From a phage, in sequence record AF017622.1: a stretch of DNA of 1,349 nucleotides; one strand, 5' to 3'. The notes under the pieces were generated by a model, which saw only the letters and a program-made list of their open reading frames with translations, was not told where the DNA came from and searched no databases. Of the stretch, positions 1-1,349 are shown piece by piece; the stretch's first letter is position 1, and each line of letters opens with the position of its first letter. Position numbers and translations under genes: made by a program.

Positions 1-165
1 ATGTTACGCCACATGGGTTGGACCGAAGCCGCAGACCTGATTGTTAAAGGTATGGAAGGCGCAATCAATGCCAAGACCGTAACCTATGACTTCGAACGTC
101 TGATGGAAGGCGCTAAACTGCTGAAATGTTCAGAGTTTGGTGATGCGATCATCAAGAATATGTAA
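1..165 (+). CDS. icd: 3' end of isocitrate dehydrogenase (NADP-dependent), partial at 5' end; last 54 codons plus TAA stop at 163-165
   Basis: Frame 1 translates without stops to [54 protein letters not shown], which matches the C-terminus of enterobacterial Icd as I recall it. The ATG at 1-3 is an internal Met codon, not a start. This ORF is absent from the supplied track because it is short. Confidence 0.9.
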
Positions 166-188
166 TCACTACATGTGTTAAATATTTA

Positions 189-216
189 AACGGGCGTATA
201 ACACGCCCGTTGTTTT
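189..216 (+). terminator. Rho-independent terminator downstream of icd
   Basis: Perfect 9-bp stem, 189-197 AACGGGCGT pairing with 203-211 ACGCCCGTT, around a 5-nt loop (ATAAC), followed by GTTTT at 212-216. It lies 24 nt after the icd stop codon. Confidence 0.65.
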
Positions 217-232
217 ATGATGATGTAAAATC

Positions 233-268
233 TTCCCCAAAACTTTCCCCAAAACCCTTCCCCAAAAC
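233..268. repeat. Three direct repeats of TTCCCCAAAAC (233-243, 245-255, 258-268); candidate arm-type integrase binding sites of the attachment region
   Basis: Three exact 11-bp copies spaced 12 and 13 bp apart, read directly from the sequence. They sit between the icd terminator and the integrase stop codon, where arm-type sites of lambda-family att sites usually lie. The binding role is inferred. Confidence 0.45.
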
Positions 269-278
269 TGGCTATTTT

Positions 279-1349
279 CTATGCTGTTTTGATATCTACG
301 ATAATCCAGTCTTTACCACGATCATCATTGTATCGGTCGGTCATTTTTCTGGATTTATGGCCTAACAACTTTTGCGTATCCAGACCCTGTTCCCGATATA
401 ACCGTTCTGAGAGAGATCGCTGCTCATGAAATGTGGGCGCAGTTCCTTGCTCCCATTTTATGCCACATTTTTCCCTGGCCTTTTTAAAAGCCGTTGTCAG
501 AGTATTTGCAGAAACCTGGTCTCCTCTGTTTGCTTGAGAGGTAGTGTGACGGTAATGGACCAGATATTTACTAACAACAGCATCCCTGCACTGAGATATA
601 ACTTCACGAAGGGTAATATTCAGAGCATCGCATTTCAGGTTAAGCGGAATAGCAAGTTTTGAACCGGTTTTTTCCTGAGTAATGTGCAACATGTCGTCCC
701 AGATATCAGAGAATTTGAAATTGCAGATATCACCTAAACGTTGTCCAGTAACAAGAGCAAGTAGCATGCCGCATTTTAAATAGGGCTGCCGTCTGCTTAC
801 GCTTTCAAATATTGCCTGCCATTCGGGCAGTGACAATCTTTGGCGGTTTACTCGATTTCGCGGTTGTTTTGTTGCCTGCGCTGGGTTAAATCCTGGCGGA
901 ACATGTCCTGCGTGTTGTGCTTCTTTGAAGACGTCGATCAACACCATTCTCACGACTTGCGCCATCCTGTTATGACCTTCAGCCTTTACAGCATCAATTA
1001 TTTCGGCAATATCAAGTGCGGTAATATCCTTGAGGTGTTGCATTCCACAATGCTCACGGAAAAGACGAATGGGTTTGCCTTTTTGCCGATAGGAGTTGGG
1101 TCTTAGTTCATTATGTTGCAGCCTGTCCTCCTGGATAGAAATATATTTATCAAGCCATTCTGTCACCGTAATGTCTGAGCGCCTGCCTTTCATTCTTTCC
1201 AGACGCTCATTGACGCTTAATATTTGTCGGGTACGTTGTTCAGCAATAATGGTATTTGCTTCAGTAGCAACTTGTTTTGCTTCATTCTCATCAGTTCCTA
1301 AGCTATGAAAACGACCGGATAGTGGATGTTTGTATTGCCAATATACCTT
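279..1349 (-). CDS. int: Phage-type tyrosine recombinase / site-specific integrase (lambda Int family), 5' end beyond the window
   Basis: The minus-strand frame is open from the window edge at 1349 to the TAG stop at 279-281 (356 codons in window). The supplied ORF (279..1193) starts at an internal Met; the 52 codons upstream in frame read KVYWQYKHPLSGRFHSLGTDENEAKQVATEANTIIAEQRTRQILSVNERLER with no stop, resembling an N-terminal arm-binding domain. Catalytic motifs are present: TGQRLGD (Arg codon 738-740), HEQR (His 426-428, Arg 417-419), LLGHK (His 357-359) and DRYNDD (Tyr codon 330-332). From memory it resembles e14 IntE-type integrases but is not identical. Confidence 0.9.
   Translation of the reverse strand, partial: KVYWQYKHPLSGRFHSLGTDENEAKQVATEANTIIAEQRTRQILSVNERLERMKGRRSDITVTEWLDKYISIQEDRLQHNELRPNSYRQKGKPIRLFREHCGMQHLKDITALDIAEIIDAVKAEGHNRMAQVVRMVLIDVFKEAQHAGHVPPGFNPAQATKQPRNRVNRQRLSLPEWQAIFESVSRRQPYLKCGMLLALVTGQRLGDICNFKFSDIWDDMLHITQEKTGSKLAIPLNLKCDALNITLREVISQCRDAVVSKYLVHYRHTTSQANRGDQVSANTLTTAFKKAREKCGIKWEQGTAPTFHEQRSLSERLYREQGLDTQKLLGHKSRKMTDRYNDDRGKDWIIVDIKTA

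Follow-up and report, generated by a model that had tools for sequence, protein, structure and literature searches.

The 1,349-nt stretch analyzed here (sequence record AF017622.1; "the window" below) is almost certainly the attL (B-O-P′) junction of a phage-21-type lambdoid prophage lying in the 3′ end of the Escherichia coli icd gene, and its minus-strand open reading frame is that of the phage 21 integrase. No evidence contradicts the phage-21-type identification. The whole window is 100% identical to sections of three E. coli chromosomes (A35, A3024, and OkiPb01694) by megablast, and the same type of search recovered 80% or more of its length from 1624 of 5426 complete E. coli genomes, where the annotation reads icd plus a site-specific integrase. 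Phage 21 DNA aligns with window positions 7–1349 without gaps and at 98.3% identity in both of its records (M61865 and OL657228). The integrase, the att site, the arm dodecamers, and the replacement of the icd tail have all been described previously and are annotated in public records. The features of the window, and those of the prophage loci to which it was compared, are collected in Table 1.

Table 1. Features of the window and of related prophage loci: feature, position (window coordinates unless a locus is named), strand, and basis or remark
icd 3′ end, last 54 codons and TAA	1–165	+	ORF; NADP-isocitrate dehydrogenase model NF005425
Homology shared by attL, attR, and attP (icd tail and terminator)	2–218	.	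five-way alignment
Intrinsic terminator of icd	189–218	+	9-bp G+C-rich stem (189–211), then T-rich tail
Three tandem P′-arm sites, predicted Int-binding, YYTTCCCCAAAA	231–242, 243–254, 256–267	+	repeat scan and OL657228 annotation
Arm-repeat loci	231–267; L002 (K-12) 1944–1976 and 16787; L005 14569–14578; L004 4540–4549		
int, phage 21-type tyrosine integrase	279–1349	-	codons 25–380 and stop TAG (279–281)
Int catalytic domain with R228, K251, H332, R335, H355, Y364	321–824	-	Pfam PF00589
Catalytic codons R228, K251, H332	738–740, 669–671, 426–428	-	λ R212, K235, H308
Catalytic codons R335, H355, Y364	417–419, 357–359, 330–332	-	λ R311, H333, Y342
Int arm-type DNA-binding domain, C-terminal two-thirds	1209–1349	-	Pfam PF09003 Arm-DNA-bind_1
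Early-left genes inward of xis			DUF4222, TraR/DksA, orf61/63/60a-type small ORFs, exo, bet, gam, kil
SIR2-family gene	L001 25660–27261		between kil and the repressor gene
PRTase-like/NADAR pair	L001 30892–32525		after the replication genes; RefSeq of A35 names anti-phage proteins
DUF3800 gene	L001 35798–36601		before the lysis genes; matches PDC-M04A
AAA-ATPase/McrC (McrBC-like) pair	L005 10924–13997		adjoins attR; position of pinE and mcrA in e14
Displaced native icd tail at A35 attR	L005 14694–14861		

Read on the minus strand, the frame comprises 356 sense codons and then a single stop, and the other two frames are stop-rich. It is still open at position 1349, where the window ends, so that its first 24 codons are missing from the window; in the three identical genomes the full-length int is 1143 nt long and encodes a 380-aa protein (WP_032217940.1) with no pseudogene mark, of which the in-window protein is residues 25–380. 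The preliminary description had pointed to the missing N-terminal portion as a place where a frameshift or stop might lie, and these 24 codons are intact in all three genomes. Its gene coordinates, its count of 356 amino acids, and its statement that the catalytic residues are present are all correct as judged by the translation and by alignment to λ Int. The N-terminal part of the in-window protein (residues 1–47) matches positions 26–72 of the 74 in Pfam profile PF09003 with a score of 61.2 bits (cut-off 22), and in-window residues 176–343 match the Phage_integrase profile PF00589 at 81.3 bits (cut-off 27.1); the central domain gave a Pfam match that is below threshold. The full-length protein aligns end to end with the λ Int structure 1z1b (E 2e-55), and the catalytic hexad R-K-H-R-H-Y is complete in an alignment with λ Int, e14 IntE, and phage 21 Int. 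With an unbroken frame, the Pfam arm and catalytic domains, and the hexad in place, the earlier view of the gene as an apparently intact tyrosine integrase of the λ family stands. By every property that can be judged from sequence, the protein belongs with the λ Int family and with phage 21 Int, and not with e14 IntE.

The protein differs from phage 21 Int at three of 380 positions, having P199, F235, and R316 where phage 21 has L, L, and K, respectively. Both P199 and R316 are also found in the integrases of phages 4A7 and Perceval, which are represented by complete phage genome records. F235 is absent from the three phage integrases that were compared residue by residue (phage 21, 4A7, and Perceval, all L); since this residue is L in those three and M in e14 IntE and λ Int, position 235 is a variable hydrophobic one. 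In strain EC2341 (NZ_CP072976.1, bp 63580–65705) the same int is split by IS1B and is annotated as two integrase fragments flanking a transposase. The plus-strand open reading frames within int (up to 88 aa) were taken as chance antisense frames, and no support was found for any of them.

The association with icd made in the preliminary description is also borne out. The first 165 nt of the window are the last 54 codons of that gene; they match positions 363–416 of the 416-position model NF005425 (E 5e-25) and are annotated as icd in all matching genomes. In the lysogen this segment is the phage-supplied replacement tail of isocitrate dehydrogenase. Phage 21 bears the 165 nt beside its attP as an icd-like pseudogene, and A35 attR holds a second icd tail, which is the displaced native copy. 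The icd gene houses “the phage 21 attachment site” (PMC12803456), and in the statement for which PMC4129442 cites Campbell et al. (1992), phage 21 replaces 165 bp of the icd 3′ end. The window is a textbook case of a prophage inside a housekeeping gene, bringing with it a replacement 3′ end, and the housekeeping gene stays functional because the prophage carries that end. The prophage-supplied Icd tail encodes E398 and K414, and K-12 Icd, whose tail is supplied by e14, has D398 and E414. At 398 and 414 the tail displaced to A35 attR agrees with the window, and its sole amino acid difference is at codon 1 of the segment (Leu for Met).

There are 26 nucleotide differences between phage 21 and the window, of which nine are in int (1071 nt) and 17 in window positions 1–188. 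These 17, in the icd tail and terminator, include a 4-nt cluster at 129–132. The uneven divergence of window 1–188 and int suggests that exchange may have taken place between phage-borne and host icd tails.

The terminator scan found AACGGGCGTATAACACGCCCGTT followed by GTTTTATGAT, inside the att homology. The RNA fold of positions 160–225 has an energy of −18.1 kcal/mol (z = −2.6), and in the phage 21 genome record OL657228 a terminator is annotated at the equivalent position. Between icd and int, an Rfam search for small RNAs gave tpke11 only (171–234, plus strand), with 19.7 bits and E 0.29, below the gathering score of 43; the match overlaps the terminator hairpin and is most likely due to chance. 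The svsR small RNA described for NC-SV, a prophage at the phage 21 site, maps to cI, which is outside the window. A promoter scan returned one promoter-like site, where shuffled sequences led us to expect 2.6, and this result is therefore uninformative.

The extent of the att homology was defined by a five-way alignment of A35 attL, phage 21 attP, A35 attR, and the two K-12 e14 junctions. Phage 21 attP and A35 attR show no relationship to attL upstream of window position 1; the sequences are alignable from 2 to 218, and beyond 218 attR diverges again. Over window 2–218, A35 attR is 95.4% identical to the window by BLAST. Since the phage DNA is homologous to icd from position 2 through 218, the start of the window coincides with the prophage boundary, and in the K-12 record the left end of e14 falls at the point that corresponds to window position 1. 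At about window 1–11 the homology has its left edge, which is the prophage boundary and the probable crossover region; the point of crossover would lie there. At window positions 12, 18, and 24, attL has C, T, and C, whereas phage 21 attP and A35 attR have T, C, and T. This pattern fits either a polymorphic phage-borne icd tail or a later exchange between the two tails, and it makes the position of the crossover ambiguous. Relative to phage 21 attP, attL and attR look as if they were swapped at these three positions.

The core TTCCCCAAAA of the P′-arm sites is present in exactly three copies in the window (at 233, 245, and 258) against 0.14 expected, and none of 200 shuffles reached three. The repeats are spaced at 12–13 nt, and the int stop codon lies 11 nt past the last arm dodecamer. 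The OL657228 annotation of the same three sites reads “attP ... 3 subsites P1P2P3; consensus YYTTCCCCAAAA”. A fourth exact copy of TTCCCCAAAA is located some 125 bp away to the other side of the homology block, in phage 21 attP and in A35 attR. The P-arm and P′-arm sites together form a λ-like arrangement. In e14, TTATCAAAA is found at the same four positions. The phage 21-type and e14 attP sites have a common layout, with P′ repeats at about 233, 245, and 258 from the left end and a P-arm repeat at about −127. Such a shared architecture with different arm-site sequences fits the divergent N-terminal domains of phage 21 Int and e14 IntE, and the difference between the two repeats is a plausible basis for separate specificities of two integrases that share an attB. 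The Int/Xis pairs of 21 and e14 reportedly excise each other's element poorly, and the arm-site difference is in keeping with this; the minimal attP, with dodecamer arm sites, is reported to measure 366–418 bp.

The domains and catalytic residues of Int, the att homology block, the arm repeats on both arms, the adjacent xis gene, and the duplication of the icd tail at attR are observed features of these loci, and from the λ paradigm and the phage 21 literature we infer the following steps. By analogy, the N-terminal domain of Int would bind the TTCCCCAAAA arm sites, three of which are in P′ (231–267, downstream of int) and one in P. The core, at which its core-binding and catalytic domains would work, would lie on the left edge of the homology with icd, so that Int would bridge arm and core. 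Strand exchange would employ Y364 as the nucleophile, helped by R228, K251, H332, R335, and H355. Integration would exchange the host's last 165 nt of icd and its terminator for the phage-borne copy, with the native tail passing to attR; because the phage-borne tail and terminator complete icd, the lysogen should keep Icd. Excision would need Int together with the adjacent Xis, which would give the reaction its direction.

In A35, A3024, and OkiPb01694 the same 35.9-kb prophage lies between icd and the displaced icd tail beside iraM. The excisionase gene xis overlaps the start of int in all three, and xis and the standard lambdoid early-left genes fill the 3.7 kb that come next inward of int, up to and including kil. 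The preliminary description had expected cargo to lie outside the window, and accessory genes are indeed found beyond position 1349 in the identical genomes; it had also stated that such elements often carry defence or accessory genes immediately inward of int and xis, and in the three identical genomes this is not where the defence-like genes are. The first of these encodes the SIR2-family protein (533 aa) and starts 4.3 kb beyond the window; the protein has a near-full-length match to PADLOC PDC-S25 (E ~1e-234) and a weaker ThsA-like match in residues 145–257. The PRTase-like/NADAR pair, the DUF3800 gene, and the AAA-ATPase/McrC pair have the positions given in Table 1, and iss, lom, and an acyltransferase gene lie to the right of the DUF3800/lysis region and before the AAA-ATPase/McrC pair. 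Judged by these profile and sequence matches, the cargo appears to consist of known or candidate defence families that are already catalogued, and none of it is directly inward of xis.

The head-gene series of this prophage ends at the decoration protein gene, and lom is directly next to it in each of the three genomes (L005 3546–4626; L009 3428–4508; L010 3686–4766). No major capsid gene and no tail-shaft gene of any kind is annotated in the prophage of the three identical genomes. All three have a frameshifted tail fibre gene, and frameshifts in Q, ybcN, and ybcO are present in A35 only, not in A3024 or OkiPb01694. A prophage without major capsid and tail-shaft genes is defective for virion formation and could at most excise on its own. 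The earlier suggestion that the element may still be mobile can be kept to that extent: int, xis, attL, and attR are all present, as would be needed for excision, but the missing major capsid and tail-shaft genes speak against anything further.

The preliminary description found the protein similar to e14 IntE and yet different from it at many positions, which is accurate (61% identity over 348 aa), and it considered two explanations of the locus that depend on this comparison. One is that the element is simply e14 and the open reading frame that of IntE; e14 does occupy the same icd site, the two proteins are homologous throughout (61%, E 3e-159), and the overall attP architecture is the same. 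However, 61% is far from the near-identity that this explanation entails, and in DNA the similarity of int to K-12 e14 is confined to one aligned piece of 138 nt, at 73%. In addition, ymfD, ymfE, and lit separate intE from icd in K-12, with intE 3.3 kb inward of the stop codon of icd, and the arm repeats there are TTATCAAAA, not TTCCCCAAAA as here. The protein identity, the near-absence of DNA similarity in int, and the different arm repeats refute the e14 identity, which we regard as hardly credible. The other explanation takes the divergence from IntE as the mark of an undescribed lineage of icd-targeting integrases. The protein is clearly distinct from IntE, but its identity to phage 21 Int, deposited in GenBank under the early accession M61865, is 99.2%, and its identity to the integrases in 27 further records of the phage collection (the set at 99% or above) is 99.2–99.5%; the flanking att features, too, are identical to those annotated for phage 21. 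The 99.2% identity rules out a new lineage, which would be an exceedingly improbable reading, and the gene belongs instead to the other classical icd-targeting integrase, that of phage 21 (99.2% identical in protein and 98.3% in DNA). The significance of the locus beyond its correct annotation is small, and it need not be chased as a new integrase lineage; this int adjoins icd in about 30% of complete E. coli genomes.

Two further readings accept the phage 21 identity of int and concern the state of the prophage. The gene could look intact and yet be dead in function, a relic in a grounded prophage whose Int no longer catalyses excision, so that the element is fixed in the chromosome. The three identical genomes, with no major capsid or tail-shaft genes and with a frameshifted tail fibre gene, are in line with such a history, as is F235, a residue that none of the three compared phage integrases has. 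Against it stand an intact 380-codon frame, an intact xis, the full sets of catalytic residues and arm sites, and two intact att junctions, and F235 occupies a variable hydrophobic position. Moreover, a long period of neutral decay is hard to reconcile with int DNA that departs from that of phage 21 at only nine positions in 1071, and we consider a dead relic unlikely. It is also conceivable, if quite improbable, that the tail-less prophage is not a recent relic but a defence island that might be kept for its cargo (SIR2, PRTase/NADAR, DUF3800, the McrBC-like pair, Iss, and Lom), with Int and Xis preserved by selection for regulated excision or for helper-dependent transfer. The defence-island reading bears on DNA outside the window, and under none of the readings is the integrase itself novel.

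Comparison with known systems places the phage-21-type attL junction as follows. Phage 21 (M61865; OL657228, genus Jouyvirus) has an Int that is 99.2% identical to that of the window over 380 aa, the same order of icd-like 165-nt tail, terminator, three YYTTCCCCAAAA dodecamers, int, and xis, and the same target in the 3′ end of icd. It differs by the three amino acid substitutions, and the window shows attL, as formed by integration; outside this region the two also part, the prophage of the window being a different, defective lambdoid mosaic. In a tblastn search of phage records, 28 carried an integrase of at least 99% identity, both phage 21 records among them, and those of 4A7, Perceval, 1W, 3W, and D2 were 99.5% identical to the window Int. 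Bievrevirus and other lambdoid phages (these five, Lambda_4C10, PhiR47_2, and others) share this 99.5% protein identity and have P199 and R316 as in the window, and their DNA is 98.8% identical over window 7–1349, icd-like tail and arm sites included; they differ from it by E206D and F235L, and theirs are complete phage records of about 47–50 kb. The e14 IntE protein (K-12 b1140) acts at the same attB in icd and is homologous over its full length (61% over 348 aa, E 3e-159), but 39% of the residues differ, the arm repeats are TTATCAAAA in e14 and TTCCCCAAAA in the window, and in K-12 the e14 int does not adjoin attL. λ Int (1z1b, 1z1g, and 5j0n) has the same architecture of arm-binding, core-binding, and catalytic domains and an identical catalytic hexad; it is, however, only 37% identical, its attB lies between gal and bio and not in icd, and its arm-type consensus is different. 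Unlike that of λ, an attP of the phage 21 type has to hold about 217 bp of icd homology, which separates the crossover region at its left edge from the P′ sites.
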